Assembly (NCBI GenBank): GCA_050261115.1
Contig: JBLNCY010000057.1
Location: 60,576 to 124,575 of the forward strand
DNA length: 64,000 bases
Reading direction: 5' to 3'
Source: Methanocella sp.
GTDB lineage: Archaea; Thermoproteota; Bathyarchaeia; Bathyarchaeales; Bathycorpusculaceae
The notes below the pieces were generated by a model. The model did not search any database. It saw only the letters and a list, made by a program, of their open reading frames with translations, and was not told where the DNA came from. Each line of letters starts with the position of its first letter. Positions within the stretch are counted from its first letter, which is position 1. This document shows, in pieces, positions 6,388 through 34,853 of this stretch. A program made the position numbers and the translations under genes.

Positions 6388-6454
6388 CAAGCCATTGTTG
6401 AACCCTTGGTTGATTCTATATATAAGGGGGGGTCTATGGCAGAGCAATAGACGC
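6388..6454 (-). repeat. Dispersed ~68-bp intergenic element, copy 1
   Basis: Reverse complement: gcgtctattgctctgccatagacccccccttatatatagaatcaaccaagggttcaacaatggcttg. Confidence 0.85.
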
Positions 6455-6700
6455 TGTTTATTTGTTGGGTGCCGGACTAATTGCAGAACCAAAAACAACA
6501 AACCGATTAATTCCCAGCTTTCACACTGGGTCCCTAGCAGGCGTTGGGTTGCTATCAAACCTGCCATTTTGTACCTAAAAATGTGCTAAACCGCCATTCC
6601 AGCGGCAGCTTTTGGGTTTTCCTTTTATAGGAAGGTTTTTAGTATAGTTATTGTATGAGTCTGTGAAAAAGTACAGAGTCTATAATGAGGTTAACATATT

Positions 6701-7429
6701 ATGTCCGTATTTGCAGCACCTGGAGCATATGACCGTGCAATAACTGTATTCTCGCCTGATGGCCGACTATTTCAAGTCGAATACGCGATGGAGCTCGTAA
6801 ATCGCGGGGCCACCATACTTGGCATCCAAACCTCAGAAGGATTAGTTCTAGGATCAGAAGAAAACATTGAAGTCCTCGAAGAAGCAGGCTACAGCTGGAA
6901 AATCTTCCGCGTCGACGATCACATCGGCGCAGCCATCGTCGGCTTATCAAGCGACGCCAGAATACTAATCGATCAAGCACGCATCTATGCTCAAAGTAAT
7001 AAACTAACATACGACGAACCCATCGACGTAGAAGTCGTAACCAAACGCATCTGCGACATCCAACAAATGTACACCCAACACGCAGGTGTCCGACCCTTCG
7101 GCGTATCCATAATCTTCGGCGGAGTCGACAAAACCGGTCCACGCGTCTTCGGAACCCACCCAAGCGGCACATACCGCGGCTACAAAGCCACCGCCTTGGG
7201 AGCAGGACGCGAAACCGTACTAAACATCCTAAAAGAAGAATACAAAGACGACATGACCATTGACAACACCATAAAATTAGCGGTAAAATGCCTAGTCAAA
7301 GCACTCGAAGCACGCCAGCTACCACCCAGAATCAAAATCGCAATCATCCCAGCAGCAACAAAGAAAATGGAAATGCTAAACGACAACACAGTCGAAGGAT
7401 ACATCAAAGAGCTGGGCCAAAGCAAGTGA
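6701..7429 (+). CDS. psmA: Proteasome alpha subunit
   Basis: YDRAITVFSPDGRLFQVEYA; VRPFGVS. Confidence 0.97.
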   Translation: MSVFAAPGAYDRAITVFSPDGRLFQVEYAMELVNRGATILGIQTSEGLVLGSEENIEVLEEAGYSWKIFRVDDHIGAAIVGLSSDARILIDQARIYAQSNKLTYDEPIDVEVVTKRICDIQQMYTQHAGVRPFGVSIIFGGVDKTGPRVFGTHPSGTYRGYKATALGAGRETVLNILKEEYKDDMTIDNTIKLAVKCLVKALEARQLPPRIKIAIIPAATKKMEMLNDNTVEGYIKELGQSK

Positions 7430-7436
7430 CAAACTG

Positions 7437-8123
7437 ATGAGCGAAAAGTTCACAGTCGCACGCTTAACCAGAGAAAACGAACACTTTGAAATCCTCGTAA
7501 AACCAGCAAAAGCGCTCTACTACCGCAACGGCAAAATCGCAGGGATAACTGAGGTTTTAGCCGCCGACATCATTTTTTCTGACGCTAACAAGGGCACCCG
7601 AGTCTCAGAGGAGGCTATGAAAAAAGCCTTCAAAACCACAGACACCCTAAAAATCGCAGATGAAATCCTCAAAAAAGGCACCCTTCAACTCACAACTGAA
7701 CAACGCAGAAAAATGGTCGAGGACAAAAAACGGCAAGTGATTGACTTTATCGCTCGACAGGCAGTTGACCCCAAAACCAACCTGCCTCATCCGCCCATGC
7801 GCATCGAAAACGCCATGGAGCAAATCCGTTACTCCATAGACCCATACAAGTCCGTGGAGGAGCAAGCAAAAGACATCGTTAAACTCTTACGACCTATCCT
7901 GCCGCTTAAAGTCGAGCAGGTCAAGGTTGCAGTAAAAATCCCCGCACAATACGCCTCCAGAGCCTACGGCACCGTTAAAACGTTGGGCACCATAAAACGT
8001 GAAGAATGGCGCGGCGACGGCTCTTGGTACGGCGAACTTGAATTACCCGCAGGCGCCTATGCTTCGCTTCTAAACAAGCTTGGCGACGCCACAAAGGGAA
8101 GCGGAGAAGCAAAAATAATCTAA
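7437..8123 (+). CDS. Ribosome maturation factor SBDS/Sdo1
   Basis: HFEILV, IFSDANKG, QLTTEQRR, PHPPMRIENAM; conserved position after psmA. Confidence 0.95.
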   Translation: MSEKFTVARLTRENEHFEILVKPAKALYYRNGKIAGITEVLAADIIFSDANKGTRVSEEAMKKAFKTTDTLKIADEILKKGTLQLTTEQRRKMVEDKKRQVIDFIARQAVDPKTNLPHPPMRIENAMEQIRYSIDPYKSVEEQAKDIVKLLRPILPLKVEQVKVAVKIPAQYASRAYGTVKTLGTIKREEWRGDGSWYGELELPAGAYASLLNKLGDATKGSGEAKII

Positions 8124-8146
8124 GTAATATGAAAAATGGTGATTTT

Positions 8147-8860
8147 ATGCCAACATTCTTTGAAAAAAAACAACTCGTAACGCCCGGAGAATTACTCGCA
8201 GAAGGCGACTACTTACCTGGCGAAAACACGTATATTGAAAACGGCAAGATATTCGCCGAAAGAATTGGACTCGTAGACAGCGATAACAAAAAAGTTAACG
8301 TGGTGGCACTTAGAGCATTTTACGTGCCAAAAGTCGGTGACATAGTAATCGGAACAGTTACTGAAGTAGGCTTCAACGGCTGGACCGTCGACATCAAATC
8401 CCCCTACACCGCCATGCTACGCGCATCCGATGTGCTTAGCAGGCCCTTTAAGCCCCAAAACGACGAGTTATCAGCAGTCCTAAACACAGGCGACCTCATC
8501 GTAGCCAAAATCGCCTCATACGACCGCGCACACGACCCACAATTAACCGTGGGCGAGCCAGGATTGGGAAAAATTACTCGCGGCCAACTCCTCAGAGTAA
8601 CCCCAACAAAGATTCCTCGTATCATCGGACGCAAGGGCTCGATGATATCTATGATTAAGCAGGAAACCAACTGTCAAATCATCCTTGGACTCAACGGCGT
8701 CGTTCTAGTCACAGGCAAGACCCCTGAAGAGGAAGCAATAGCCATCGGCGCAATCCGCAAAATTGAAGAAGAATCCCACACAAGCGGCTTAACCGATCGC
8801 ATCACACAGTTATTGAAAGAAAAGAAAACACCAGCCCAACTGGAGGAAATACAACAATGA
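8147..8860 (+). CDS. rrp4: Exosome RNA-binding subunit Rrp4
   Basis: [19 protein letters not shown] (S1), [11 protein letters not shown] (KH); GGTGA before ATG at 8147. Confidence 0.95.
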
Positions 8861-9603
8861 ACGAAAAAACTGAAAAACTAATCGACAAGAAAGGCATCCG
8901 CGGCGACGGAAGAAAAGCGGATGAACTTCGCCCCCTAAAACTACAGGTCGGCGTACTTCCAAACGCTGATGGATCAGCATACATTGAACACGGCAAAAAC
9001 AAAATCTTAGCCGCAGCATACGGCCCAAGAGAAATGCACCCCAAGCACCTCGCACAAGCAGATCGCATGGTGCTCAGATGCAGATATCACATGGCGCCCT
9101 TTAGCGTGCAAGAACGCAAATCTCCCGCACCCTCACGCAGAGAAGTTGAATTAAGCAAAGTAATCAAAGAATCCCTTGAACCAGCCCTATTCCTTGAACT
9201 CTACCCCCGCACAGGCGTCGACGTCTTTGTGGAGGTTTTACAGGCAGACGGCGGAACCCGCTGCGCAAGCATTACCGCTGCAGCTCTAGCTATTGCTGAT
9301 GCGGGTGTTCCGATGCGTGATTTAGTTGTGGCATGCGCCGCAGGCAAAGTTGAGGACCAAGTCGTCTTAGACCTCTACGACGCCGAGGACAAATTAGGCT
9401 CTGCCGATGTCCCCGTTGCTTACATGCCTAATCTAAACGCAATCACGTTACTGCAGATGGATGGTGTTCTTTCTCCAGCTGAATTCGAGAAAGCAGTCAC
9501 TATGGCTATGGATGGCTGCAAAAAGATCTACCAAATGCAGAAAGAAGCACTTAAGACCAAATATATGGCTATTAAAGAAACTGAGAAGGAGACTGAAGAG
9601 TAA
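8857..9603 (+). CDS. rrp41: Exosome exonuclease Rrp41
   Basis: [31 protein letters not shown]. Confidence 0.97.
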
Positions 9604-10394
9604 TGTCATCACTTGTAACTAAAGTCAAAGTAAAGCAAATCGAAGCCCTACTAGAGAAAGGCACACGTATGGATGGTAGAGGCTTACTTGATACCCGCGA
9701 AATCAAAATCGAACAAGGCCTCATAGAGAAAGCCGAGGGCTCAGCTCGTGTGCTTTTGGGCAAAACCGAGGTGCTTGTCGGGGTTAAAGTCGAAACAGGC
9801 GAACCCTTCCCAGACACACCAAAAGAGGGCGTCATGACTGTTAACGCGGAACTTGTACCGCTTGCGTCGCCCCACTTTGAGCCAGGTCCACCTGACGAAA
9901 ACAGTATTGAACTTGCTCGTGTTGTTGACCGAGGCATTAGAGAATCGCATGCTGTTGATACAGAGAAGCTGTGCATCGAGGAAGGCAAAAAAGTCTTTGT
10001 TGTGTTTGTCGATGTCTATGTCCTTAACCATGACGGCAACCTAATTGACGCTTCTGCAATCGCGGCTATGGCGGCGCTCATGAACACCAAAATGCCTAAC
10101 TATGAAATCAAAGACGGCGAACTAAAGATCAAGCAAGGCTACACACCGCTACCCATGAAGAGCCACCCCGTTACAGTCACCATCGGCAAAATCAATGGTA
10201 AACTCGTTGTTGACCCTGCATTGGAAGAGGAATCCGTTATGGATTCGCGCATAACCTTTGCATCTAATGAGGACGGAAACATCTGTGCTATCCAGAAGGG
10301 TCTGTCAGGCTTTTTCTCACCGCAACAGATTTTAGATGCCTCAAAGATTGCTCTGGACAAAGCAGTCGAATTAAGAAAGAAACTAAACTGGTGA
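9603..10394 (+). CDS. rrp42: Exosome subunit Rrp42
   Basis: RMDGRG, FEPGPPDENSIELARVVDRGIRES, HDGNLIDA. Confidence 0.97.
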   Translation: MSSLVTKVKVKQIEALLEKGTRMDGRGLLDTREIKIEQGLIEKAEGSARVLLGKTEVLVGVKVETGEPFPDTPKEGVMTVNAELVPLASPHFEPGPPDENSIELARVVDRGIRESHAVDTEKLCIEEGKKVFVVFVDVYVLNHDGNLIDASAIAAMAALMNTKMPNYEIKDGELKIKQGYTPLPMKSHPVTVTIGKINGKLVVDPALEEESVMDSRITFASNEDGNICAIQKGLSGFFSPQQILDASKIALDKAVELRKKLNW

Positions 10395-10400
10395 AAATAG

Positions 10401-10748
10401 TTGCCCAAGACAAAAAAAGTTGGTCCAACTCGAGGGTTCGGTCCTCGATACGGTTCCACTGTAAGAAAACGCTACGTCAAAGTCATAACTGAACTCAAAA
10501 AGCCACACAGATGCCCCCAATGCGGGTTTGTCCGTGTTAAACGCGAAAGCGTTGGCATCTGGGTATGCGGCAAATGCGCCTACACCTTCTCTGGCGGAGC
10601 GTACACTCCACACACGAAACTCGGCGCCGTTGCAAAACGTGCAGCTAAAGGCGGTCTAGAAGTTGAAGCGGCCCAAGCGCAGGTACCAGTAGTGGAAGCC
10701 GAAGAAGTTGAAGCCGCTGAAGAGGCAACTGAAGAAACCACCGAGTAA
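10401..10748 (+). CDS. rpl37ae: 50S ribosomal protein L37Ae (eL43) with acidic C-terminal tail
   Basis: GFGPRYG, CPQC...VGIWVCGKC, GGAY; TTG start after GGTGA. Confidence 0.93.
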   Translation: MPKTKKVGPTRGFGPRYGSTVRKRYVKVITELKKPHRCPQCGFVRVKRESVGIWVCGKCAYTFSGGAYTPHTKLGAVAKRAAKGGLEVEAAQAQVPVVEAEEVEAAEEATEETTE

Positions 10749-10802
10749 ACCTCTCTTCTTTTAACCTATTTTTATTAACTCATTCTATACTTAGGGTACG
10801 TT

Positions 10803-11060
10803 ATGTCAATTAGAACCTCAACCGCTGTCAATTTGCAGTTCACCGACGCAAAACAAATCGATATACTCCTATCCGCGTTATCTCCCGAAGCAATGGCGCC
10901 GGCGACTCGACGATCATGTGTCACCTTGAATAGGGATGGTGTGTGTTTGAGGTTAACTGTTGAAGCCGAAGACACTGTTGCGTTAAGGGCTACTCTAAAC
11001 ACTTATCTGCGCTGGATAAACTCCGCCCTAAACGTCCTTGAAGCGATTAAGAAAGCTTAA
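10803..11060 (+). CDS. pcc1: KEOPS complex subunit Pcc1
   Basis: ALSPE...LTVEAEDTVALRATLNTYLRW; position in the exosome superoperon. Confidence 0.85.
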   Translation: MSIRTSTAVNLQFTDAKQIDILLSALSPEAMAPATRRSCVTLNRDGVCLRLTVEAEDTVALRATLNTYLRWINSALNVLEAIKKA

Positions 11061-11074
11061 CTGTAATGGCGAGG

Positions 11075-11141
11075 GTTCTGTTGCTCTTGCGACCTACCCT
11101 CTCCCTTATATATAACCAACCATGGGTTTAACCTATGATTC
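11075..11141 (+). repeat. Dispersed ~68-bp intergenic element, copy 2
   Basis: gttctgttgctcttgcgacctaccctctcccttatatataaccaaccatgggtttaacctatgattc, between convergent genes. Confidence 0.85.
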
Positions 11142-11195
11142 GGGTATTTTGGCAAAATTTTAATATGTACTAAGCTAACGGCTGGCGGTAGCTAA

Positions 11196-11627
11196 TCACA
11201 GGTTACCCCGTTTCCACACCTTTACTGTCTCATAGGCGAGAAACACAACAATGACCGACGTAGCAACCAAAGAAAAAACATATGCCTGATACAACACTGA
11301 CGGCCGAAGAACCGTTAATTCAATCAATAAAACTGCGACTGCAAACATTGTATAAAAGAAGTATCTTGGAACTAAGAATCGGCTAATCTTTACACTGTTC
11401 TCCAGTAGGTATTTATTGACTGTGAATCCGCCTGTTTCCCTTTTGAGTAACCCTGCATCCTCCAGCTTGGAAAGATGGTAGGTGGCAACTGAAGAACTGC
11501 TGAAATTCATCGCCCTCTGTAACTCGCGGGTACCGACGGGTTTGCGACTTTTAAGGAGAAACCGATACACTTCAAGAGTCGTACCCTTTAGCACTTCTTT
11601 TGATTCATCGGTAACCTCAGAGTTCAT
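11196..11627 (-). CDS. Winged-HTH protein with two C-terminal TM helices (putative membrane-anchored regulator)
   Basis: LKGTTLEVYRFLL...GTRELQRAMNFSSSSVATYHLSKLEDAGL followed by two hydrophobic segments. Confidence 0.75.
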   Translation of the reverse strand: MNSEVTDESKEVLKGTTLEVYRFLLKSRKPVGTRELQRAMNFSSSSVATYHLSKLEDAGLLKRETGGFTVNKYLLENSVKISRFLVPRYFFYTMFAVAVLLIELTVLRPSVLYQAYVFSLVATSVIVVFLAYETVKVWKRGNL

Positions 11628-11768
11628 AATGCCAACAATACACTTTAAAAGATTTAAGACCTATCCCTTTCACTCCTCAGGGCTTGATGTTCGAGAATTA
11701 GAACACTTTTTCTAAAAAATACGATTAAATAAACGTCTGCGCCTTCAATATGGTAAGGTTCAGATAGA

Positions 11769-12029
11769 TTGAACTATAAGACTCTGCTAGCTCCATTGTT
11801 CGGGGTTGTTTTGGCTTTGTTGATAGCAATGGCTGTGATTCCGTATTGGCCTCAAGACCAACCCCAAGTTGCGCCGAGCCCAACTCCGCTACCTATCACG
11901 GGAACCCCTCCTCCGATCCAAGTTCCTTCTGCGGCAAACCTCTACTATTTTCCACCAATGATGCTCCTGCTAATTGCGGTAATCGTCGTCGCCTTGATTA
12001 TTCTTCTATATTTCCGAAAAGAACCATAG
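11769..12029 (+). CDS. Small membrane protein (TM, Pro-rich linker, TM)
   Basis: Two hydrophobic stretches flanking PSPTPLPITGTPPP; TTG start. Confidence 0.6.
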   Translation: MNYKTLLAPLFGVVLALLIAMAVIPYWPQDQPQVAPSPTPLPITGTPPPIQVPSAANLYYFPPMMLLLIAVIVVALIILLYFRKEP

Positions 12030-12125
12030 TGGCAGCTCTTTCTTGCTGTGCTAAAAAGAGAACACTCTGCACTAAAGCATTGCATTAAGTACTGCACTTT
12101 CCCTAGAAGTAATAGAAGTGGCAAA

Positions 12126-12740
12126 ATGTCAACCGCTGCCTCGTACCCCATAATTCAACTCTACATCATGCTGTTGAGCATCTGTGTAATTGTCGCGATA
12201 GCAGTGTTTTGGAAATACCCTTCATTGAGGGTTTACCGCCGAAAACGCAATGTAGCAATTTACACTATTGTCCTTCTTGTATTCGGCCTAATAGCATATC
12301 AAGCCTACAATGCATCTCTGGGGCCAAATTTTATCTCGTTTAGTATACAAAAAACCCAAAACATCATCTACGTTGGAGAACAAAACCATTTCTTTGTAAC
12401 CTGCCGTAGTGAAGGTGCCAGAGAAGTCCACTTTTATATGACCATCAATGCGAAAAATGCAACGCTCCAAACAAATGGGCATGAGGGCTATATACAGCTA
12501 AACGAAACAGCGATAAAAATTCCATTCACTTTTCACGGAAACGGAGAACAAGCGCAGCCTGTATTCTTCACTGTTAACCCAAACGTTAGTAGTATCTCAT
12601 TCTATCCTCGCATTGAACGCCTAGACGGTGCTAAGATAGCTGTCATGACATATCTAAGCGAAATCCAATGCACCTTTGACCCCTCATCAAATAGTTATGT
12701 GATGGCTGCTTCAGTTTCTCAGCCGACTGCTGTTCCCTAA
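12126..12740 (+). CDS. Hypothetical membrane protein (2 TM plus extracellular beta-rich domain)
   Basis: Two N-terminal TM segments; ATG at 12126 preferred over GTG at 12048. Confidence 0.6.
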   Translation: MSTAASYPIIQLYIMLLSICVIVAIAVFWKYPSLRVYRRKRNVAIYTIVLLVFGLIAYQAYNASLGPNFISFSIQKTQNIIYVGEQNHFFVTCRSEGAREVHFYMTINAKNATLQTNGHEGYIQLNETAIKIPFTFHGNGEQAQPVFFTVNPNVSSISFYPRIERLDGAKIAVMTYLSEIQCTFDPSSNSYVMAASVSQPTAVP

Positions 12741-12755
12741 TGGAGTAAGAATGGC

Positions 12756-13097
12756 ATGGCTGTTTGGGTTGTTTCTATGTTGATTGCCGCAATACCTTTT
12801 GTGATACTTAGACTATCTTGTTCGTTAACCACCGACGGATTACAAAGGAATTTAGGGCTATCCCGAGTTTTTGGAACGTTTGTTCTGGGTGGGCCTTATT
12901 GTCATGTTTGCTTCTGTCTCATTTGTTGGCTGGCTGGGCGGGGGTATTCTTAGTTATCATCTGCTTCCCCACTCTCTCCCTTTGAGCTGTTGTATATCCC
13001 CGTTCAGCTTCTTGGGCTATGTATAGGCTCGCTTAGCATCGCCATACTATTGACTGTTATAGGTGCCAGAAACAAAAAGAAAAAACAAGGCCATTAA
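12756..13097 (+). pseudogene. Disrupted multi-TM membrane protein gene
   Basis: In-frame TAG at 12951-12953; TM-like peptide LFWVGLIVMFASVSFVGWLGGGIL lies in a shifted frame; TM plus basic tail (..IAILLTVIGARNKKKKQGH*) follows. Confidence 0.4.
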
Positions 13098-13106
13098 TTC
13101 ACCAAG

Positions 13107-14285: not shown

Positions 14286-14349
14286 GCAAAGAAATATGCG
14301 CTAGATTCAAGAAAAGCTTTGTCGAAAACCGCTTGTAGCAGCTTATTCG

Positions 14350-14363
14350 AGGGGGGGCTATGG
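14350..14363 (-). repeat. Degenerate remnant of the dispersed element (G-run segment only)
   Basis: AGGGGGGGCTATGG versus AGGGGGGGTCTATGG in copy 1; similar distance upstream of an operon. Confidence 0.35.
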
Positions 14364-14524
14364 AAACTTTGCGCATTGAAAAGCGGTGCTGTTGATGGAT
14401 TGCTTATCGGCTGATTGTTTATCTTGGTTGTTAGCCCTCAAATAATATGTCCTTGGTACATATGTTGTGCCCATTAGGTTTGGCTAATTGTATTTTTGCT
14501 AAAATATACGGGTTCCTTGTCTAG

Positions 14525-14540
14525 GGAAGGTTTAAATAAA
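14525..14540 (+). promoter_or_regulatory. Putative BRE/TATA box of the rps13 operon
   Basis: GGAAGG-TTTAAATA about 55-70 nt upstream of the rps13 ATG. Confidence 0.5.
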
Positions 14541-14593
14541 CACCAAGTCATTTCGTATATGCTTCAAAGTTAAAAAACGGATGAAAATTCAGC

Positions 14594-15073
14594 ATGTCAC
14601 AGGAATACCGCTATATTGTTCGTATCATGGGTACAGACGTTCAAGGTACCTTAAAGACTTCCTACGCAGTCGCGCATGTCAAAGGGATAAGCAATAGCCT
14701 TGCTAACGCAGTCATCAAAAAAGCAGGCGTAAATCCAGACCTGCGCGTTGGCTTAATTACTGAATCAGACATCGCAAAAATTGAGGATGTCATCCGGGAC
14801 CCCGTAAGATACGGCATACCCGGCTGGATGTTTAACCGCCGAAAAGACATAGAAACCGGCAAAGACCAACACGTTCTAAGCGCAGACTTAGCATTCAAAA
14901 TTAAAACAGATATTGACTTAGCCAAAGAAATCAGGTCCTGGCGTGGATACCGCCATGCATACAGCCTGAAAGTAAGGGGCCAAAGAACCAAGACCACCGG
15001 ACGCCAAGGCAAATCTCTCGGAGTTAAGAAAAAGGCCGTCCAAGGAAAGCCTGGCGCTGAAGGAGGCAAATAA
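14594..15073 (+). CDS. rps13: 30S ribosomal protein S13 (uS13)
   Basis: [25 protein letters not shown]. Confidence 0.97.
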
Positions 15074-15075
15074 GC

Positions 15076-16073: not shown

Positions 16074-16179
16074 CTCTCCTTATCCCCAATTTGTTAAGGC
16101 GAAAAATACAAATAATGCACCGAAATATCGTATTGACCGCAACGGCAATTATAGTAACCTTATTGGAGTGTCCCAGCAA

Positions 16180-17354: not shown

Positions 17355-17361
17355 AAATAAA

Positions 17362-17814: not shown

Positions 17815-17816
17815 TT

Positions 17817-18236: not shown

Positions 18237-18251
18237 GGAGAGAAAGAAATA

Positions 18252-18482: not shown

Positions 18483-18488
18483 ACTACA

Positions 18489-18520: not shown

Positions 18521-18578
18521 AATTCTGTTTTGTCGCTGTTACTGTAGCGTGCTGTACTGGGTCTCCAGTAGACAACCT

Positions 18579-18613
18579 TGTTGCTATATCATGCGACCCT
18601 CCATTAGATAGAG
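18579..18613 (+). repeat. Degenerate copy of the dispersed element lacking the palindrome
   Basis: tgttgctatatcatgcgaccctccattagatagag aligns with TGTTGCT...GACCC.CC.TTATATATAGAG. Confidence 0.4.
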
Positions 18614-18692
18614 GCGGCTTGAGTGGGACCTAGGAAGCCGTTCTGTTGGCATTAAAAATTGCTTTAATGTTTGTACTTTTATGGAAAATAGT

Positions 18693-20101: not shown

Positions 20102-20112
20102 GAAAGAAACCT

Positions 20113-25900: not shown

Positions 25901-25987
25901 CCATCCCCCACCCATTTTACCGATAAGTAGAGATGCGTATAGAAATTCTATTATCCCAGAATTAACGATAACTATCTTGTGCCCAAA

Positions 25988-26443
25988 ATGATAACCATAC
26001 CTCTGGATGATTTAGATAAAAAAATCTTGCGTGAACTGCAACAGGATGGTCGCATATCTTTTGCTGATTTGGGCCGCAAACTAGATGTTCCAGAGGCAAC
26101 CATACGGTTCCGTGTTAAGCGGCTAGAAGATCATCGGGTTATTACTCGGTTTACTGCTTTGGTTGATCCTTCCAAGGTTGGTATAGTGGTGAGTGGGGCG
26201 ATTTTGTTAAAGATTGATCCTGCTCATTTGGATGATGCATGTAAGCGGTTGACTGATTTTTGTGAGGTTGGGTATTTGTTCCAGAGTACGGGGGAGTATG
26301 ACATTGTGTCGGTTGTGTTTGCGCATGATTTAGAGGAGTTTAATGATGTGGTTAGGCGAGTGAAGTTGATTGTGGGTGTTAAAGATGCGCGTGTTTCGGT
26401 TACTACTCGGTTTTTGAAGAATAATCAGGAATTAACCTTCTAG
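25988..26443 (+). CDS. Lrp/AsnC family transcriptional regulator
   Basis: LDDLDKKILRELQQDGRISFADLG...RVKRLE; STGEYDI RAM domain. Confidence 0.9.
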   Translation: MITIPLDDLDKKILRELQQDGRISFADLGRKLDVPEATIRFRVKRLEDHRVITRFTALVDPSKVGIVVSGAILLKIDPAHLDDACKRLTDFCEVGYLFQSTGEYDIVSVVFAHDLEEFNDVVRRVKLIVGVKDARVSVTTRFLKNNQELTF

Positions 26444-26580
26444 CAGTTAATGTTGCTGCATTCGCAGTATAATGCATCATAGTTGTTTGTTCCATAACAT
26501 TAATAGGATTATTTGCCAAAATAGTGATAACCCCTAAGCTAAATTGATCTAACGTTAACCTTACAGCATTTGGTGAAATA

Positions 26581-27063
26581 TTGACTGCCCAACCTCGCCC
26601 CCTAACCGACGAAACTGACAGAAAAATACTCCAAATCCTCCAAGACAACTTCCCCCTAGTTGAACAACCCTACGAGCACCTCGCCCAGCAACTCAACTTA
26701 AATGAAACCCAAGTCATAGAACGACTAACCCGCCTAAGCCAACAGGGCATCACCCGAAAAATCGGCGCAGTTATCGACATAACCAAACTCGGATTAAACG
26801 CAACCACCCTCATAGCAGCAAAAGTTCCCCCAGAAAGAATAGACGTCGTCGCCGACGTAATCAACCAATACCCCCAAGCATCCCACAATTACCAACGCGA
26901 GAACGAATACAGCGTCTGGTTTACCCTCAAAGCAAACAACCTAGCCGAACTAAACGCACTCCTTGAGGAGATAGTGCAAAAGGCCTCTCTAAGCAGAGAA
27001 GACCTGCTTAATCTACCCACCAAGACCTGCTTTAAAATTGACGTAAGATTTGATGTGACCTGA
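26581..27063 (+). CDS. ahbA: Siroheme decarboxylase subunit alpha (NirD/L-like)
   Basis: LQDNFPLVEQPY, RKIGAV, SHNYQRENEYSVWFT. Confidence 0.88.
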   Translation: MTAQPRPLTDETDRKILQILQDNFPLVEQPYEHLAQQLNLNETQVIERLTRLSQQGITRKIGAVIDITKLGLNATTLIAAKVPPERIDVVADVINQYPQASHNYQRENEYSVWFTLKANNLAELNALLEEIVQKASLSREDLLNLPTKTCFKIDVRFDVT

Positions 27064-27074
27064 GGCACAGCTTT

Positions 27075-27539
27075 ATGGATGAAATCGATCGTAAACTTTT
27101 AGCTCAAACCGAAAAAGGCATACCGTTAACTTCTCGCCCTTTTGACCAAATAGCCCAAGAAGCTGGGATCTCTCCCCCAGAGGCTATTAGTAGGCTGCAG
27201 CGGCTCCAGAAAAGCGGCATAATCCGGCGATTTGGAGTTTCACTTATGCCCAATGGGGTGGGTTATTTGGCTAATGCATTGGTAGCTTGGAAAGTTCCCC
27301 CGCAACGCATTGCTTTGGTGGGAGAGTATTTTTGTAAGTGCAAGGAAGTGTCTCACTGTTACGAACGCGAAGTAGTGCAGGGTAGGTGGGATTATAACTT
27401 TTATACAGTCATACACGCCCAGCAACGTTCCACAGTGGAAGAAATGGTGCAGCGATTCGCCGCTGAAACATCCCTGAGTGAATACGCGATTCTTTTCAGT
27501 ACAAGAAACCTCAAGCTAAAGGAGAAAACGAAATGTTAA
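27075..27539 (+). CDS. ahbB: Siroheme decarboxylase subunit beta
   Basis: IPLTSRPF, IRRFG, NALVAWKV, VSHCYER, WDYNFYTVIH, LFSTR. Confidence 0.88.
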   Translation: MDEIDRKLLAQTEKGIPLTSRPFDQIAQEAGISPPEAISRLQRLQKSGIIRRFGVSLMPNGVGYLANALVAWKVPPQRIALVGEYFCKCKEVSHCYEREVVQGRWDYNFYTVIHAQQRSTVEEMVQRFAAETSLSEYAILFSTRNLKLKEKTKC

Positions 27540-28687
27540 ACATAACAAAACTCTGGTGCGGCACCCCCAGCTCAATGGATAACCTGCGCTACGGCAATCA
27601 TGTACACAAAAAACCCGTCGTTGTCTGGAACAGCACCCAACGCTGCAACCTCCAATGCATCCACTGCTACTCCAACTCAGAAAACAAAACCTACCCCAAC
27701 GAGTTAACAACCCAGCAGGCAAAAGACATGGTTATGGACCTGGCTAGCTTCGGTGCGCCTGTTCTGCTTTTTTCAGGCGGCGAACCTCTCCTTCGGCAGG
27801 ACCTCTTTGAAGTTGCCAAGATCGCCACAAGTAACGGTATACGCGCTGTACTCTCCACAAATGGCACACTAATCACCCCCGAAATCGCTGGGCAACTAAA
27901 AGATGCCGGGTTCTCATACGTTGGCGTAAGCATCGACGGCACCGAGCAGACCAACGACAGGTTCCGCGGCAGTCCCGGCGCCTTTAAAAAAGCAATTCAG
28001 GGAATTCGCAACTGCAAAGCTGCAGGCGTAAAACCGGGTTTACGTTTCACGGTAACCAAATACAATTATCCCGACCTGCTTGGCGTCTTTGATGTAATCG
28101 AGAAAGAACAAATCCCCCGTGTGTGCTTCTATCATTTGGCATATGCTGGCCGGGGCTCCTCGATTAGCAACGACGATTTAACCCACAGCCAAACCCGCGA
28201 ATTCATGGATACAATTCTTGAGAAAGCAGAAGAATTGCAGCAGAAAAATATAGACACTGAAATACTAACCGTCGATAACCACGCGGACGCTGTTTACCTT
28301 TACCTTAAACTCAAACAGAAAAACCCCCAGCAAGCACAGAGCGCTCTAGCGCTGCTTAGGCAGAATGGCGGTAACAGTTCAGGCGCTGGCATTGGTTGCA
28401 TAGACGCCCAAGGAAACGTTCACATCGACCAGTTCTGGCGCCACTATACCCTTGGCAATATTCTCGAGCGGAAGTTCAGCGATATCTGGACTGACAACCA
28501 GGAGCCAATGCTCCAAGCACTCAGAAACCGAAAACCCCACCTTCAAGGCAGATGTGCTAGCTGCCGTTTCCTTGACCTATGCAACGGGAACCTTCGAGTC
28601 AGAGCCGAAGCCATCTACGGCGACATCTGGGCACCAGACCCAGCCTGCTACCTAACCGACAAAGAAATCACCCAAGCAGGCATCTAA
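27533..28687 (+). CDS. ahbC: Radical SAM 12,18-didecarboxysiroheme deacetylase (Fe-coproporphyrin III synthase)
   Basis: KPVVVWN..CNLQCIHCY, RVCFYHLAYAGRG, LTVDNHAD, GNLRVRAE, PDPACYL. Confidence 0.88.
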   Translation: MLNITKLWCGTPSSMDNLRYGNHVHKKPVVVWNSTQRCNLQCIHCYSNSENKTYPNELTTQQAKDMVMDLASFGAPVLLFSGGEPLLRQDLFEVAKIATSNGIRAVLSTNGTLITPEIAGQLKDAGFSYVGVSIDGTEQTNDRFRGSPGAFKKAIQGIRNCKAAGVKPGLRFTVTKYNYPDLLGVFDVIEKEQIPRVCFYHLAYAGRGSSISNDDLTHSQTREFMDTILEKAEELQQKNIDTEILTVDNHADAVYLYLKLKQKNPQQAQSALALLRQNGGNSSGAGIGCIDAQGNVHIDQFWRHYTLGNILERKFSDIWTDNQEPMLQALRNRKPHLQGRCASCRFLDLCNGNLRVRAEAIYGDIWAPDPACYLTDKEITQAGI

Positions 28688-29734
28688 ATGGAAACCCACC
28701 CCAAACCGGCATCTCTGGCTCCACGGGTTATAGCTTGGGAATCCACCCGAGCCTGCAACTATGCCTGTGTCCACTGCCGCGCAGAAGCACAAAAGCAAGC
28801 TGACCCCAACCAGTTAACCACCCAAGAAGCACTCCGACTAATGGATGAGATTGCAGAGGTATGCAAGCCCATTCTGATTATCAGCGGCGGAGACCCGCTA
28901 AAAAGAGAAGATATCTTTACGGTGGCTTCCTATGCCGATAAGCTGGGGTTTAGGGTAGTTATGTCCCCAAGCGGTAGCAACATAACCCCCGAAGTCATCT
29001 CCAACATGAAATCATCAGGCGTAAAGATGATCTCACTAAGCCTCGATGGCTCAAACGCAGTGGTGCATGATTCTTTTAGGAAAGTTCAGGGCGCGTTCGA
29101 TTTAGTCCTAAAAAACATCCACACCGCAAAAGAAGTCGGTATGCCTTTTCGCATAAATACAACAGTAACCAAACACAACGCCAACGACTTACCCGCCATT
29201 CACGATTTAGTTGTGTCTTTGGGTTCGGTTGAATGGGATGTTTTCATGCTTGTGCCCACAGGAAGAGGAAAAGTAACCATGGAAATAACCCCCCAAGAAT
29301 ACGAAGCCACGCTACAGCAGATTCATGCACTTAGCCAGAAATCGCTCATTCATATCAAAATGACCTGCGCCCCGCAATACATTCGCATAGCCGCCCAACA
29401 GGGCAAAGCCACTGGGGAAGCGCCTCATGGTCGCGGTTGCATGGCGGGCAACGGCTTCTGCTTCATATCCCACGTCGGAGAGGTATTCGGCTGTGGATTT
29501 TTACCGGTTGCCGCTGGAAACGTCAGAAAGGAAAAATTCGGCGACGTCTATCAGAAGGCACCCCTGTTTGCGGCACTGCGGAATCACAACCTGTTAACTG
29601 GGCACTGTGGCCTGTGTGAATTCAAGGTTGGGTGTGGCGGTTGTCGGGCTAGGGCATTATCGGTTTACGGCGATATGTTTGCTGGGGAACCCTATTGTAC
29701 CTATAGACCTGCAGCTCAAAAAACAAAAAGTTAG
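28688..29734 (+). CDS. ahbD: Radical SAM AdoMet-dependent heme synthase
   Basis: IAWESTRACNYACVHCRA, FMLVPTGRG, TCAPQY, GCMAG, CGGCRARA SPASM domain. Confidence 0.85.
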   Translation: METHPKPASLAPRVIAWESTRACNYACVHCRAEAQKQADPNQLTTQEALRLMDEIAEVCKPILIISGGDPLKREDIFTVASYADKLGFRVVMSPSGSNITPEVISNMKSSGVKMISLSLDGSNAVVHDSFRKVQGAFDLVLKNIHTAKEVGMPFRINTTVTKHNANDLPAIHDLVVSLGSVEWDVFMLVPTGRGKVTMEITPQEYEATLQQIHALSQKSLIHIKMTCAPQYIRIAAQQGKATGEAPHGRGCMAGNGFCFISHVGEVFGCGFLPVAAGNVRKEKFGDVYQKAPLFAALRNHNLLTGHCGLCEFKVGCGGCRARALSVYGDMFAGEPYCTYRPAAQKTKS

Positions 29735-29883
29735 ACACCTCAAGCTACTTTGGACATCAAGGAGAAAACTGGAGGCCAATTCTGACCCATAGTCGGGTTC
29801 CTTTCTTGCGTTCTTAATGGGCGAGTGTTGCCCTGAAAATAGATTCATATTGGGTTTTGACGTGTCAATTCGGTCTGATGCAT

Positions 29884-30138
29884 ATGGAATACGTTACATT
29901 CATCGGCTTACTCGCCGCGTTTCTAACAACAATTTCACTGTTGCCCCAAGTGATTAAAGTGTGGAAGACAAAATCCGCCAAGGACGTTTCGAGCGGTATG
30001 TTTTCGATACAATGCGGCTCAGTTTCAACTTGGGTTGTGTACGGCTTTCTAATGCATGACCTTCCCATCATAGCTGCAAACTTGCTGGTCTTTATTCAGG
30101 CAGCAACAATCTTGCTATTCAAGAAACGGTTCCGCTAA
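29884..30138 (+). CDS. SemiSWEET/PQ-loop transporter
   Basis: TTISLLPQVIKVWKTKSAKDVS, WVVYG, PIIAAN. Confidence 0.88.
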   Translation: MEYVTFIGLLAAFLTTISLLPQVIKVWKTKSAKDVSSGMFSIQCGSVSTWVVYGFLMHDLPIIAANLLVFIQAATILLFKKRFR

Positions 30139-30155
30139 ACCCTACCTAAGCCCTT

Positions 30156-30224
30156 CAAGTGCAAGTTGAACCATGGGTTGACTCTATTTATGAGGGAGGA
30201 GATCCCTCGGCAGAGCAACAGGCC
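30156..30224 (-). repeat. Dispersed ~68-bp intergenic element, copy 3
   Basis: Reverse complement: ggcctgttgctctgccgagggatctcctccctcataaatagagtcaacccatggttcaacttgcacttg. Confidence 0.8.
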
Positions 30225-30370
30225 GCCGCCATGACACCTCCAAGATGTTAGCAAAAAGAGTCCAAACGATGCCCTGCGTCCTCTGTGGAAACCAGCGTTA
30301 AATCCTAAAAGGGACCAAAATTATTTAATTCCACCGCCGACACTTCTCAAAGCAATTAGTCGTTAGTCAT

Positions 30371-31636
30371 TTGGAGACACAAAAGTTGGCACACCAAGAA
30401 TGCATAAACTGCAAAACAACCTACAGCATAGACGAAATTGTTTACTTCTGCAGAAAATGCGGAGACATCCTAGAAATCAAATATGACCCCCAAGAGCTTG
30501 CGGAGGCGGCAAAGACTAGCGACTGGAAGACCAAGCCGCTCTCTGTCTGGCGCTACCGCCCCTTTATGCCAATCCATGACAGCACCAAACTCGTCACTTT
30601 AGGCGAAGGCGGCACAGGCCTACACCACTCAATCCACCTAGGCAAAGAGTTAGGCGTCACAAACCTCTACGTAAAAAATGAAGGCGAAAACCCCACAGGC
30701 AGCTTTAAAGACCGAGGCATGACCGTTGGCGTAACCAAAGCCGTTGAACTCGGCGTCCGCCATGTAATCTGTGCATCCACAGGTAACACGAGTGCAGCCC
30801 TCGCAGCCTACGCAGCACGCGCCGGCACAAAATGTACCGTACTGATTCCCTCAGGCAAAATCGCCTACGGTAAACTCAGCCAAGCCATGATTCATGGCGC
30901 TAAAGTACTGCAGGTGCGCGGAAACTTTGACGAAGCTCTAGAATTCGTGCTCAAGCTGGGCGAAACGCATAGAGACATTTACTTGCTTAACTCGATTAAC
31001 CCCTTCCGTATCGAAGGCCAAAAATCCCTCGGATACGAAATCTGTGAGCAACTAAACTATGATGCTCCAGACCGCATAATTATCCCAGTCGGCAACGCAG
31101 GCAACATCAGCGCCGTCTGGAAAGGCCTCAAAGAATTCTACGAACTAGGCCTAATCAAAAAACTCCCAAAAATGACCGGTATCCAAGCAGCGGGGTCTGC
31201 TCCCATCGCGCAAGCCATCAAAGTCAACAGTGAAAAAATCGTCCCCGTCGAACATCCCGAAACCATCGCGACCGCCATCCGCATCGGCGCACCCGTAAGC
31301 TGGAAAAAAGCCGTCAACGCCATCCGCGAATCAGGCGGCACAGCCGAGACAGTAACAGATGACGAAATCCTTGACGCCCAAAAAACATTAGCACAAACCG
31401 AGGGTATCTTTGTGGAGCCTGCATCTGCCTCGTCACTGGCAGGCCTCAAAAAACTAGTCAATAACGGAACCATACAGCGAGATGAGCGTGTCGTCTGCAT
31501 CACTACAGGTCACGGCCTAAAAGATCCAGACACCGCCATCAAACAATGCGAAAAACCCATCGAGGTAGACGCACAAATCGAAGCAATCGAGGCGGCTCTT
31601 GGCCTAAAAAAGAGCATAATTGCCCCTGCAAGGTAG
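30371..31636 (+). CDS. thrC: Threonine synthase
   Basis: N-terminal Zn ribbon, NPTGSFKDRG PLP lysine, CASTGNTSA, PVGNAGN, TGHGLKD. Confidence 0.95.
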   Translation: METQKLAHQECINCKTTYSIDEIVYFCRKCGDILEIKYDPQELAEAAKTSDWKTKPLSVWRYRPFMPIHDSTKLVTLGEGGTGLHHSIHLGKELGVTNLYVKNEGENPTGSFKDRGMTVGVTKAVELGVRHVICASTGNTSAALAAYAARAGTKCTVLIPSGKIAYGKLSQAMIHGAKVLQVRGNFDEALEFVLKLGETHRDIYLLNSINPFRIEGQKSLGYEICEQLNYDAPDRIIIPVGNAGNISAVWKGLKEFYELGLIKKLPKMTGIQAAGSAPIAQAIKVNSEKIVPVEHPETIATAIRIGAPVSWKKAVNAIRESGGTAETVTDDEILDAQKTLAQTEGIFVEPASASSLAGLKKLVNNGTIQRDERVVCITTGHGLKDPDTAIKQCEKPIEVDAQIEAIEAALGLKKSIIAPAR

Positions 31637-31642
31637 ATAGAC

Positions 31643-32671
31643 ATGAGAATAATACTGATTGGTTATGGAGTAGTCGGAAAAGGCGTAACAACAATTCTAA
31701 CACGCCGATATGCCCAACAAATCAAAGACGGCTTTAACCCCAAAATCGTCGCCATAGCCGACATAGACGGCGCAATCATAAACCCCCGTGGATTGAGCCC
31801 CGAGAAACTAGAAGAAATCAAGCAGCGTGGCTACCCGATTTCTGCCGATAAAGACTTTGGTGTTCAAGGCATCAAAGCGCTTGATGTCATCAAAGAGGTT
31901 GAGGCAGAAGTCGTCGTCGAAGTCACCCCCGTAAACATTCAAACCGCAGAACCCGCCCTCTCCCACATCACAACCGCCTTCAAAACAGGCAAACACGTCG
32001 TCACCACCAACAAAGGCCCCCTAGCACTTGCCATGCCCGCCCTAACCGAACTAGCTGAATACAATAATGTGTATTTCCGCTTCAGTGGCACAGTCGGCGG
32101 CGGAACCCCGATGCTTGAATTCGCCAAACGCTGTCTGGCGGGCGATCGAATCTTGGGCATAAAGGGTATCCTAAACGGCACAACCAACTACATCCTAACC
32201 GAGATGGCGCAGAACCGCGTCTCCTTCCAAGACGCTCTATCTCAAGCACAAAAACTTGGATACGCAGAACGCGAGCCCTCCATGGATATCGACGGGTTTG
32301 ATACATCATGCAAGACAGTTATTCTTGCTAACTGGATACTAAACCAGAAAGTCACCCTCAAAGACGTGGACCGCACAGGCATCCGCTACGTAACCCTCCA
32401 AGACCTTGATGAAGCAGCCAAACGGGGCAACACCATCAAACTCATAGGTTCAGTGGATGACAAGAGCAAGCCTACAGTCAAACCCATGGAGGTCCCAAAG
32501 ACCAGCCCTATGTGTGTTAGCGGCGTTCTTAACGCAGTGACTTATCAATGTGAGTTCGCCGCTGAGCAGACAATCATCGGTCGGGGTGCCGGTTCGATTG
32601 AGACGGCAGGTGCAGTTTTAAGAGACCTCTTAGACATAAGACATAAGTTAGCATCTAGACTACTAACGTAG
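31643..32671 (+). CDS. hom: Homoserine dehydrogenase
   Basis: GYGVVG, VVTTNKGP, GILNGTTNYIL, GYAEREPSMDIDG, GRGAG. Confidence 0.95.
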   Translation: MRIILIGYGVVGKGVTTILTRRYAQQIKDGFNPKIVAIADIDGAIINPRGLSPEKLEEIKQRGYPISADKDFGVQGIKALDVIKEVEAEVVVEVTPVNIQTAEPALSHITTAFKTGKHVVTTNKGPLALAMPALTELAEYNNVYFRFSGTVGGGTPMLEFAKRCLAGDRILGIKGILNGTTNYILTEMAQNRVSFQDALSQAQKLGYAEREPSMDIDGFDTSCKTVILANWILNQKVTLKDVDRTGIRYVTLQDLDEAAKRGNTIKLIGSVDDKSKPTVKPMEVPKTSPMCVSGVLNAVTYQCEFAAEQTIIGRGAGSIETAGAVLRDLLDIRHKLASRLLT

Positions 32672-32690
32672 AGAAAGGCGAAAAGAAATC

Positions 32691-34097
32691 ATGAAAATTG
32701 TTATGAAGTTCGGTGGAACCAGCGTAGGCACAGGCGAGAACATACGCCACGTGGCCGACTTAGTTGCACAGTACAGCAAAGAACACAAAATCGCCGTCGT
32801 CGTCTCGGCACTTGCAGGCGTCACTAACAGCCTAATCGAAACCGGCTGCAAGGCACAGAAAAGCGACCAAAAAAACATCGAAGCATTCACCTCTAGCCTG
32901 CTAAAGAAGCACACAGACGCCATAGCCACGGCGATTACAAGTAAAAGCATCCAAAAAGAAGTAACCGAAATAACACAAAAAAGCATCGCCGAACTAGAAA
33001 AAGTCCTAACAGGCATCTGCTATGTGGGCGAATTAACCCCGAAATCAAAAGACTACGTAATGTCGTTTGGCGAACGCCTCTCTGCACCAATAGTTTGGGG
33101 AGCAATCAAAGACCACAACATACAGAGCCAATTCTTCACCGGCAAAGAATCAGGCATAGTTACCGACTCCAACTTTGGCGAAGCAGAACCCCTCATGAAC
33201 TACACAACCCACCTACTACGTGAACGATTGGAGCCTTTGATGGAGCAAGGCACTATCCCAGTTGTCACAGGCTTCATAGCCGCAAACCAAGACGGCATCG
33301 TAACCACCGTCGGCCGCGGAGGCAGCGACTACACAGCCACCATACTCGGCGTAGCCCTAAAAGCCGACGAGGTATGGATATGGACAGACGTAGACGGCAT
33401 CATGACCACCGATCCCAAACTTGTCCCAGCTGCACGCATGCTACCCCAACTAAGCTATCAAGAGGCAGCCGAAATGGCTATCTTCGGCGCCAAAGCCATG
33501 CATCCACGAGCTCTCGGCCCAGTATCTAAAGAAAACATACCTGTGCGCATAAGAAACACCCAAAACCCATCCAATATGGGCACACTAATCACAAAGGCGC
33601 CGGCGGCTAACGAGACTAAACCCGTAAAGGCAGTTGCCATGATTAAAGACGTCGGTATGCTAAACGTCTATGGCGCTGGCATGGTGGGTGCGCCGGGTAG
33701 CTATGCAAAGGTCTTTGATGTGCTTGGCAGAAATAACATAAACGTCATGATGATTTCCGCCGCTGCATCCGAAGCCAACATATCCATGATAGTGAAACGC
33801 TCAGTGCTGGGCAGAGCCGTAAGCAATATCGAAATCGCATTGCAGGAAAGAGGCGGCATAGTCAGTGAAGTCACAACCGAAGATGACGTTGCAGTTATCG
33901 CGGTTATGGGTGCTCACATGAAAGGTACGCTGGGTGTGGCGTCGAAAATCTTTAGCATCGTAGCCAAGATGGGTATAAACATCCGCATGATCGCACAAGG
34001 CAGCTCCGAACTCAACATCAGCTTTGTTGTGAAGGAGAAGGATGGCGCTGCCGTCGTTAGAGCAATCCATGAAGAGTTTAACCTCGACAAAGCCTAA
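32691..34097 (+). CDS. lysC: Aspartate kinase with two ACT domains
   Basis: MKFGGTSV, SFGERLS, GRGGSDYTA, WTDVDG, QGSSELNIS. Confidence 0.95.
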   Translation: MKIVMKFGGTSVGTGENIRHVADLVAQYSKEHKIAVVVSALAGVTNSLIETGCKAQKSDQKNIEAFTSSLLKKHTDAIATAITSKSIQKEVTEITQKSIAELEKVLTGICYVGELTPKSKDYVMSFGERLSAPIVWGAIKDHNIQSQFFTGKESGIVTDSNFGEAEPLMNYTTHLLRERLEPLMEQGTIPVVTGFIAANQDGIVTTVGRGGSDYTATILGVALKADEVWIWTDVDGIMTTDPKLVPAARMLPQLSYQEAAEMAIFGAKAMHPRALGPVSKENIPVRIRNTQNPSNMGTLITKAPAANETKPVKAVAMIKDVGMLNVYGAGMVGAPGSYAKVFDVLGRNNINVMMISAAASEANISMIVKRSVLGRAVSNIEIALQERGGIVSEVTTEDDVAVIAVMGAHMKGTLGVASKIFSIVAKMGINIRMIAQGSSELNISFVVKEKDGAAVVRAIHEEFNLDKA

Positions 34098-34197
34098 CTT
34101 TTCCATTTTTGTTTCTGTGTGCTTGCAGGCACAACTATTTTTATTTCTTGAATATCTGAACCCTTTAGTTTTAGCAGTAGAATACTGGGAGTTATGA

Positions 34198-34680
34198 ATG
34201 CGTAACTTACTTCGTAACCGGAAAGGCTCTGGGAAGATTATTGCTTTAGTTCTCATCATAATCGTTGTCTTTGCGTTGGTGAGTTTGGCTATCTACTATT
34301 ATTATGCGTACAATAACCTGACTTTCAATTTAAACCAAGTTAGGTTAGGCGAGGTAAGCTCGAATTCTCTAACGCTAAATGTCCAGATCGCCATTAACAA
34401 CACGTATCTGCTACCAGTTTACATCCCAAGCGGCAGCTTCACGCTGTACCTTAATGATCAACGGCTGGGAACGGGCACGTTTAACTCGATAACAGTCGGA
34501 GGAAACAATCAAGGCATAGTTACAGTGCCAGTTACAATTAATGCTGCTGACGTTCCGTCTGCTGCTTTCGGTGTGCCAACAGGCGGCGGCACGGTGACTT
34601 TAACTGTTCAGGGCTCGGCTAATCTGGTGGTGTTTAGTGTACCATTCAATGCTACTCTCTACAATGCACAATTAACTTAG
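34198..34680 (+). CDS. LEA type 2 (WHy domain) family membrane-anchored protein
   Basis: N-terminal TM; INNTYLLPV...FTLYLNDQRLGTG...TVGG...VTVPV pattern. Confidence 0.7.
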   Translation: MRNLLRNRKGSGKIIALVLIIIVVFALVSLAIYYYYAYNNLTFNLNQVRLGEVSSNSLTLNVQIAINNTYLLPVYIPSGSFTLYLNDQRLGTGTFNSITVGGNNQGIVTVPVTINAADVPSAAFGVPTGGGTVTLTVQGSANLVVFSVPFNATLYNAQLT

Positions 34681-34785
34681 GCAACTGCCCAGCAGCCGTA
34701 AGTATCCTCTATGATGTATCTGAAAAAGATTACTTGTCCACTGAAGACTTGCTGTTTTGGGTGACGTAGTGGTAATTCGGCTGCT

Positions 34786-34853
34786 GTTCTGTTGCTTTGC
34801 CGAGCTACCCTTCCCTTATATATAGAACCAACCAAGGGTTGAACCTGTGCTTG
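34786..34853 (+). repeat. Dispersed ~68-bp intergenic element, copy 4
   Basis: gttctgttgctttgccgagctacccttcccttatatatagaaccaaccaagggttgaacctgtgcttg, between convergent genes. Confidence 0.88.

Follow-up and report, generated by a model that had tools for sequence, protein, structure and literature searches.

The window analysed here, a stretch of 64,000 nucleotides (contig C57, positions 60576-124575), belongs to G000, a 95%-complete metagenome-assembled genome (MAG) of a soil archaeon, 2.148 Mb in 66 contigs, whose relatives are Bathyarchaeia MAGs of soil, peat and termite-gut origin. It carries the psmA...Pcc1, S13...RpoN, thrC-hom-lysC-LEA_2 and argG-argH-carA-carB operons, confirmed by Pfam, as well as an SMC gene. 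Beside these operons lie five copies of a short oriented element, linked to each other by direct and inverted repeat matches, which is the subject of this study. The five copies read, in order, as a U box, a TATA box, which is TTATATATA or a near variant in all five and throughout the family, and a D module. The U box consists of (T)CTGTTGCTYTGCC, a variable block of 6-8 nt and a C-rich box, CCCCTCCC. In class A, to which all five belong, the D module is GAGTCAACC-N3-GGTTSAAC, about 6 nt and CTTGAA, and it holds the palindrome TCAACC-N3-GGTTSA with a spacer of 3-5 nt. The copies, their remnants and the segments between them are as follows.

6388..6452, minus strand: copy 1, class A (E 2.6e-7), TATA box at about 6417-6425, U end toward psmA
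6453..11075: bracketed segment 1, the psmA-SBDS-Rrp4-Rrp41-Rrp42-L37ae-Pcc1 operon, between copies 1 and 2
11076..11141, plus strand: copy 2, class A (E 6.8e-8), beginning 15 nt past the pcc1 stop codon, U end toward pcc1
14342..14372, minus strand: degenerate U-like remnant upstream of the S13 operon, recognised by eye
18577..18614, plus strand: degenerate U + TATA-like remnant after rpoN, recognised by eye
30154..30223, minus strand: copy 3, class A (E 3.4e-9), U end toward thrC; left edge of an inverted segment
30224..34786: bracketed segment 2, thrC-hom-lysC-LEA_2, between copies 3 and 4
34787..34854, plus strand: copy 4, class A (E 5.4e-10), past the LEA_2 gene, U end toward the operon 3' end
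35740..35758, plus strand: truncated U remnant (GTCTGTTGCTTTTGAGCTA) at the junction of a 199-amino-acid gene and a DUF7523-ACT gene; right edge of the inverted segment
43752..43821, plus strand: copy 5, class A (E 3.6e-8), beginning about 70 nt past the carB stop codon, U end toward carB

An nhmmer profile made from the five window copies finds 106 copies in G000 at E<=1e-3, 53 on each strand, and a profile rebuilt from 100 copies finds 104-112. The five copies of the initial annotation stand with their coordinates and strands, but of its two degenerate remnants, at about 14350 and 18579, only the U-like appearance by eye can be upheld; they constitute weak evidence, since neither profile detects either of them even at E<=10. 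The heptamer CTGTTGC of the U end is by itself not significant in the window (18 matches vs 10.4+-3.5 expected, 4 of 100 shuffles reaching 18), and the whole element, with 106 nhmmer matches in 2.148 Mb, is far above chance. All copies but one (105/106) are intergenic by the gene calls of a crude in-house open reading frame (ORF) caller, which gives 1,628 genes and 73% coding. Class A, with the palindromic D module, makes up 66 of the 106. The other 40 form class B, in which the U and TATA boxes are the same and lead into a distinct conserved tail, G/T-rich and about 130 nt long, that reads GACTCAGCAACCGCAG, about 14 variable nt and TGTCTGGGTGTTTGCTGG...GGCTGCACAACTG, often with a short T run at the end (e.g. 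C43:24596-24750, C64:2570-2720 and C57:17738-17880 among loci L099-L112, outside the window). The variable block of the U box occurs as discrete sub-variants that are common to both classes, and at C22:17440-17520 and C22:33640-33710 (loci L113 and L114) there are symmetric variants of the types D'-TATA-D and U-TATA-U'. Past the D module, about 50 nt are common to copy 4 and the paralogue closest to it (window 34855-34905 and C6:25100-25160), with a GAGG box and a five-codon ATG...TAG mini-ORF. Three copies (C18:47377, C51:37192 and C25:11266) lie about 220-250 nt upstream of, and co-oriented with, genes for tRNA Arg-tct, Met and Ala-ggc, each of which has its own canonical promoter.

The most striking property of the family is how its copies are oriented relative to each other. 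Among the 76 pairs of neighbours on the same contig in G000 (35 -+, 24 +-, 7 ++ and 10 --), opposite orientation prevails over same orientation by 59 to 17 (p=1.4e-6), a statistic that is independent of contig orientation. Up to a distance of 10 kb, 30 of 38 neighbour pairs are -+, i.e. with the U/CTGTTGC ends inward, a number reached by none of 5000 strand-label shuffles, and only 3 are +-. The -+ pairs are also tightly spaced, with a median of 4.7 kb and an interquartile range of 3.7-7.8 kb, compared with a median of 19 kb for the +- pairs (p=2e-8). Since close neighbour pairs are overwhelmingly -+, the fixed polarity with which the initial annotation saw core operons bracketed is a genome-wide rule, and the copies alternate in a way that is far from random. 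The rule recurs in two other genomes of the same genus for which the element censuses are incomplete: in G056, U-inward pairs make up 9 of the 14 within 10 kb (p=0.0014; spacing 10 vs 21 kb, p=0.002), and 4 of 5 in G105 (p=0.018; spacing 13 vs 48 kb, p=5e-4). Orientation tied to the strand of the adjacent gene was rejected as an explanation, as tandem spacers hold 29 co-oriented and 23 anti-oriented copies (p=0.49); the U side points toward a gene end in 56 copies and toward a gene start in 45 (p=0.32), and the genes inside U-inward segments lie on either strand.

Asymmetric motifs that face each other across the borders of a segment are what distinguishes oriented domain-boundary sites, and this is the arrangement found here. 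CTCF-type sites share it, two copies of an asymmetric motif facing across a bounded segment, but the segments between the elements are only about 5 kb. By analogy, the elements could be transcription-free anchors of small chromosomal domains, where a bound protein stalls SMC or pairs with its inverted partner, so that loops of about 5 kb around heavily used genes would be insulated under a convergent rule like that of CTCF. We regard this as quite unlikely. The inverted-pair geometry with its fixed inward side in three species, the tight spacing, the interior genes on either strand and the SMC gene in the window all agree with it, and in Thermococcus kodakarensis a roadblock protein halts archaeal Smc-ScpAB at tens of loci (PMC11840125). 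In that system, however, the stalling is tied to A-tracts and to a symmetric protein, TrmBL2, and not to any oriented motif or repeat, and a perfect TATA box next to an invariant box in the position of the TFB-recognition element (BRE; TFB, transcription factor B) more simply indicates the transcription machinery.

What the pairs enclose differs from what lies between them. For the gene content, 20 of the 23 U-inward segments of at most 10 kb were sampled (82 genes; the window's two on C57 and one on C43 were left aside), and the control was 10 of the 21 D-inward segments, namely those of at most 19.5 kb and off C57 (118 genes). Genes for translation, RNA processing, replication/repair or folding account for 34 of the 82 U-inward genes and 13-16 of the 118 D-inward ones. 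A Fisher test on the first count, 37/82 vs 16/118, gave an odds ratio of 5.2 (p=1.3e-6), and a chi-square by hand arithmetic on the recount of 34/82 is about 20, with the reservation that the functional classing is subjective. The U-inward segments contain the ribosomal proteins S24e, S6e, S3Ae, S8e and L18Ae, RpoE, eIF2-gamma, aIF5B, eIF6, EF1-beta and an eRF1-like protein, SerRS, GluRS, both tRNA-intron endonuclease subunits and archease, and also Cdc6, the PolD small subunit, Rad50/Mre11, SSB, thermosome, prefoldin and CDC48. The CTGTTGC ends are thus turned toward segments enriched in core genes, in line with what the initial annotation had claimed from the window, but its further claim that the palindrome faces accessory genes is not supported, because the long D-side segments hold his, cobalamin and haem operons and L11-L1-L10 beside transporters and glycosyltransferases. 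The fraction of genes with a Pfam hit is equal (68/82 U-inward vs 96/118 D-inward), the length (p=0.29) and codon score (p=0.06) of flanking genes give no clear difference between core and accessory, and neither do codon score and coding density differ between U-inward and D-inward segments as wholes.

The element is clade-restricted. The exact 25-nt class A pattern has no match outside G000 among 185,579 species genomes, a 101-nt BLAST query gave a weak match in 1 of 20 relatives, and looser U + TATA patterns were found in 9 of 101 and 13 of 120 genomes of the genus, G000 included, with dozens of copies only in G000 and G105. A CCCCTCCC-TTATATA core is common to G000 and the other species G105, G056, G067 and G082; G056 departs from the rest in its U box, and the D module varies from class to class and from one species to another. 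The G056 variant (…GACGTCTCAAAGCTGACCTCCCCTCCCTTATATAAAGAAC), with the same C-rich-TATA core and another U box, has 79 copies, 50 forward and 29 reverse (e.g. C9:241043, C9:245756 and C9:39533), and G067 has 20 copies, while two further members of the genus, G001 and G003, have zero copies of the C-rich-TATA variant. In G105 at least two further conserved families follow downstream at a fixed distance from the TATA box. The elements are in sum a clade-restricted family of oriented non-coding intergenic modules.

Within this clade the same sites are often occupied. After the pcc1 stop codon there is an element in the orientation of copy 2 in G105 (E 1.7e-7), in G082 (E 0.009) and weakly in G056, and upstream of psmA there is a copy-1-like element in G056 and a degenerate form in G082. 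Two metagenome loci have a counterpart of copy 3 in the same place and orientation (L197, E 1.3e-4, and L194, E 0.026), and these are the sole two matches in 671 kb from 80 loci. The counterpart of copy 4 in G105 (L120 722-671) follows the end of the same operon and keeps the relative orientation, and at the site of copy 5 there is a U + TATA remnant about 200 nt past carB in G105 and a core in the opposite orientation in G056. Gains or losses must also have occurred, because 80 psmA loci of other relatives lack any convincing copy upstream of this gene. The D module at the pcc1 site belongs to class A in G000 and is class-B-like in G105 and G082, and in each species the U box matches the consensus of its own genome. 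Since the D module varies here by species, it is position and orientation that have been kept and not any particular RNA. The sites and orientations are conserved, the sequence is homogenised within each genome, and the copies are old residents rather than recent insertions. For a comparison of filled and empty sites no strains of the same species were found, the best metagenome LysC match having 90% amino-acid identity.

Dispersed extragenic repeats are well known in bacteria, and the main rival to the interpretation we will arrive at is a selfish repeat, like the repetitive extragenic palindromes (REPs), shaped by selection. The elements would then be selfish or neutral repeats, similar to REPs and REP doublets forming hairpins (REPINs) or to MITEs (miniature inverted-repeat transposable elements), that are copied or homogenised, and the pairing would be a survivorship effect: direct neighbours would be deleted, and selection would remove copies whose firing or folding reaches into essential genes nearby. 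We find this rather unlikely, but much speaks for it. The copy number is high in only some species (13/120 by the strict pattern, and none in G001 or G003), the consensus is species-specific even at orthologous sites, U sub-variants are common to the classes, and degenerate remnants exist. Among spacers of at least 150 nt, convergent ones hold a copy more often than divergent ones (26/132 vs 22/239, p=0.006), as with REPs. Short extragenic repeats with a species-specific consensus, in about 100 or more copies that persist at orthologous sites, are typical of REPs, bacterial interspersed mosaic elements (BIMEs) and REPINs. Such repeats often lie at gene 3' ends and within convergent spacers, and the REPs of BIMEs alternate in orientation (PMC2817692).

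The geometry of the G000 copies is nevertheless another one, as the partners are separated by 4-8 kb with genes between them, and not by the tens of bases of a mosaic, and they have a central TATA box. Loss by deletion would favour both kinds of inverted pairs equally, yet within 10 kb the -+ pairs outnumber the +- pairs by 30 to 3, and the same operon ends are occupied across species about 20% apart in DNA. The machinery that could spread such repeats was also searched for. A link to IS200/IS605 or TnpB was rejected: the Y1 transposase (PF01797, the RAYT type) has 0 matches in G000 while control genomes were matched, and the TnpB zinc-ribbon gave nothing above the cut-off in G000; DDE families were not searched, and the MAG is 95% complete. 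A U-box hairpin with a covarying stem was likewise rejected, as the best stem scores 4.72 against 4.63+-0.09 in permuted pairs. With MITEs and the ends of composite transposons the elements share short non-coding inverted pairs flanking DNA and a patchy copy number between species, but class A has no terminal inverted repeats (CTGTTGC... vs ...CTTGAA), the class B ends match at only 9 of 13 positions, no target-site duplications were seen by eye in the displayed copy flanks, and the interiors of tight pairs are core housekeeping DNA that is collinear with the relatives.

The initial annotation preferred to see in the elements oriented sites of recombination or insertion, where accessory cassettes would enter, leave or be turned round, and which sit at breaks in conserved superoperons. 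A comparison of the window up to its last 18 kb with the relatives speaks in part for this. The bracketed operons are collinear blocks in G105, G056 and G082, with gene identities of 76-83%. Segment 1 is collinear in all three at 80-81% identity, and both its outer flanks differ: the relatives carry extra DNA of 1.7-8 kb at the site of copy 1 and of 2.2-2.6 kb at that of copy 2. In G105 there are 3.3 kb extra at the 14350 remnant and a 58-kb jump past rpoN. Furthermore, G000 carries the segment from thrC to the 199-amino-acid gene (window 30224-35739) inverted in comparison with G105, G056, G082 and four metagenome loci, and this segment is bounded by copy 3 on the minus strand and the truncated U at 35740 on the plus strand. 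This remnant carries the variable block GAGCTA, which among the copies displayed is found only in copy 4. The interval from pcc1 to the S13 operon is 3.4-9.3 kb in G000, G105 and G082, and the 3.4 kb of G000 are bounded by copy 2 and a remnant; in G003 (C1:80700-81800, L263) only 720 nt separate the psmA-pcc1 operon from the S13 operon, and a single small PQ-loop gene occupies this interval.

Indels and breaks on the palindrome side and one inversion are thus real, and the D-side flanks do differ in the relatives, but breaks also occur where there is no element. Such breaks are found in the window at 742-3554 and at about 25.9 kb, and the break after pcc1 is present in the element-free G003 and G001 too, the latter having a HAD hydrolase after pcc1. 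The region 25938-29697 with two radical-SAM genes is unmatched in G056 and G082, and in G105 it is matched only at 67% identity by a different contig. This region is a probable variable island, the left edge of which, at about 25.9 kb, is without an element. The search gave no support for a recombinase that serves the sites: in addition to the missing Y1 and TnpB matches, no recombinase genes adjoin the window copies by Pfam. The spacer of the palindrome is only 3-5 nt, insertion of the integrase type gives direct and not inverted flanks, no inversion of the psmA or S13 segments is seen in G105 or G082, and the D-inward segments hold ordinary biosynthetic operons. Rearrangements are tolerated in the spacers between operons anyway. 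The recombination-site idea rests on the single inversion, and we consider it very unlikely.

The presence of a TATA box naturally raises the question of transcription. The elements are not the promoters of the adjacent core operons, a possibility that was rejected because a separate conserved BRE/TATA lies nearer to the start codon in each of psmA, thrC and the S13 operon. The one of psmA is about 80 nt before the ATG, so copy 1 is not the psmA promoter, and the conserved promoter of thrC begins at 30314. The 90 nt before the psmA start (window 6610-6700), comprising the BRE/TATA, a leader and a Shine-Dalgarno sequence, have 75-95% identity in 80 related loci, in which the remaining upstream spacer is unalignable. 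Nor is the element protein-coding: there is no common downstream ORF family, the frames in class B are inconsistent, and no open frames run into U (median 10-15 codons). In sum, the elements are neither promoters of their neighbours, nor coding, nor a known RNA family, nor typical MITEs.

Another reading takes U-TATA as the promoter of genes for trans-acting small RNAs, with the RNAs themselves, i.e. the class B tail and the families in G105, as the functional part. The 40 class B paralogues with their conserved tail of about 130 nt and frequent terminal T run fit with this, as do the several conserved downstream families in G105. No covariation-supported structure and no Rfam match came to light, however, 66 of the 106 copies have no conserved transcribed part, and the class of the module switches at an orthologous site; the pairing rule would also be left unexplained. 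We hold small RNA genes to be a highly doubtful explanation.

We tentatively favour the reading that the elements are outward-pointing, non-canonical promoter-like modules that bind protein and mark the edges of gene clusters. The promoter-like part of it is preferred because the invariant core consists of a box in the BRE position and a TATA box, and because unrelated tails start at a fixed distance from it. Archaeal core promoters include activator-dependent ones with weak BREs (the TFB-RF1 type), and the elements resemble an archaeal BRE/TATA promoter in having a TATA box of 8-9 bp, a conserved box directly upstream, conservation over roughly the size of a pre-initiation complex, and conserved downstream families at a fixed distance, which look like transcription units sharing one promoter. 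The TATA-binding protein, accompanied by either a specialised TFB or an activator recognising the U box, would bind the element, and transcription would then begin on the D side and give short non-coding transcripts that are mostly unconserved. The module might be read by one of the three TFB paralogues that G000 has, or a factor on U might help. The boundary role is suggested because the edge position and the outward direction are conserved and the product is not. Copies would be retained at the edges of short housekeeping clusters with the U/C-rich side inward, and would act there as cluster boundaries and not as promoters of the neighbours or as dedicated recombination sites. Protein binding, the existence and direction of transcription and the boundary effect are all things we infer from the sequence.

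Several observations weigh against this interpretation. A promoter-like function alone leaves the pairing unexplained. The box in the BRE position is pyrimidine-rich: where the element has CCCCTCCC, the tRNA, psmA, S13 and thrC promoters of G000 carry a purine-rich BRE of the GGAAAGG type, with (A/G)AAAGG + TTTAWATA as the pattern, which is the same for 41 tRNA genes. Unlike an ordinary promoter, most elements have no gene or conserved RNA downstream, and the 66 class A copies have no conserved or motif-enriched sequence there. The first gene met on the D side runs convergently in 54 of 105 copies, in many cases no more than about 100 nt from the module, and is co-oriented in 51. RNAalifold, run on both strands for class B and two G105 families, gave no consensus RNA structure. 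In Rfam, the window at the gathering score and 20 G105 loci had 0 matches, and for 16 G000 loci at E<=1 the sole match was a chance-level tRNA at a locus edge. An extra TFB paralogue as the explanation of element presence was rejected, as there is no correlation across the five genomes examined: G000 has 3, G105 5, G056 2, and the element-free G001 and G003 3 or more. Finally, the gene calls are crude and the functional classes were assigned by hand from Pfam names.

If the elements do act as boundaries, they might do so by polar insulation of transcription, by generation of supercoils, or as roadblocks for SMC like TrmBL2 of Thermococcus. The variation of the D module at one orthologous site is explained if position and orientation matter and the RNA that is made does not. 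The alternative of insulators, which was also put forward in the initial annotation, may be the best fit to the geometry. One could go further and, by analogy, see in the elements a prokaryotic counterpart of oriented boundary sites that would insulate domains of about 5 kb around heavily used informational genes, either by stalling SMC or by two outward promoters pumping negative supercoils into the bracketed cluster, and this we deem unlikely. A GyrA domain was not found in any of G000, G105, G056, G001 and G003 (0/5), and was found in 12 of 14 control genomes.

We know of no archaeal repeat with a central TATA box and a genome-wide facing rule around short housekeeping clusters, and no published description of these elements was found in open-access full text. 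About 100 copies set as inward-facing inverted pairs around housekeeping clusters appear to be an arrangement new for archaea, with a putative function. Should the elements be nothing more than selfish repeats, the polarity rule would still point to a strong cost that depends on orientation and calls for an explanation. If they are boundaries, whether transcriptional, topological or related to SMC, they would offer a sequence handle on how the chromosome is partitioned in an uncultured archaeon.

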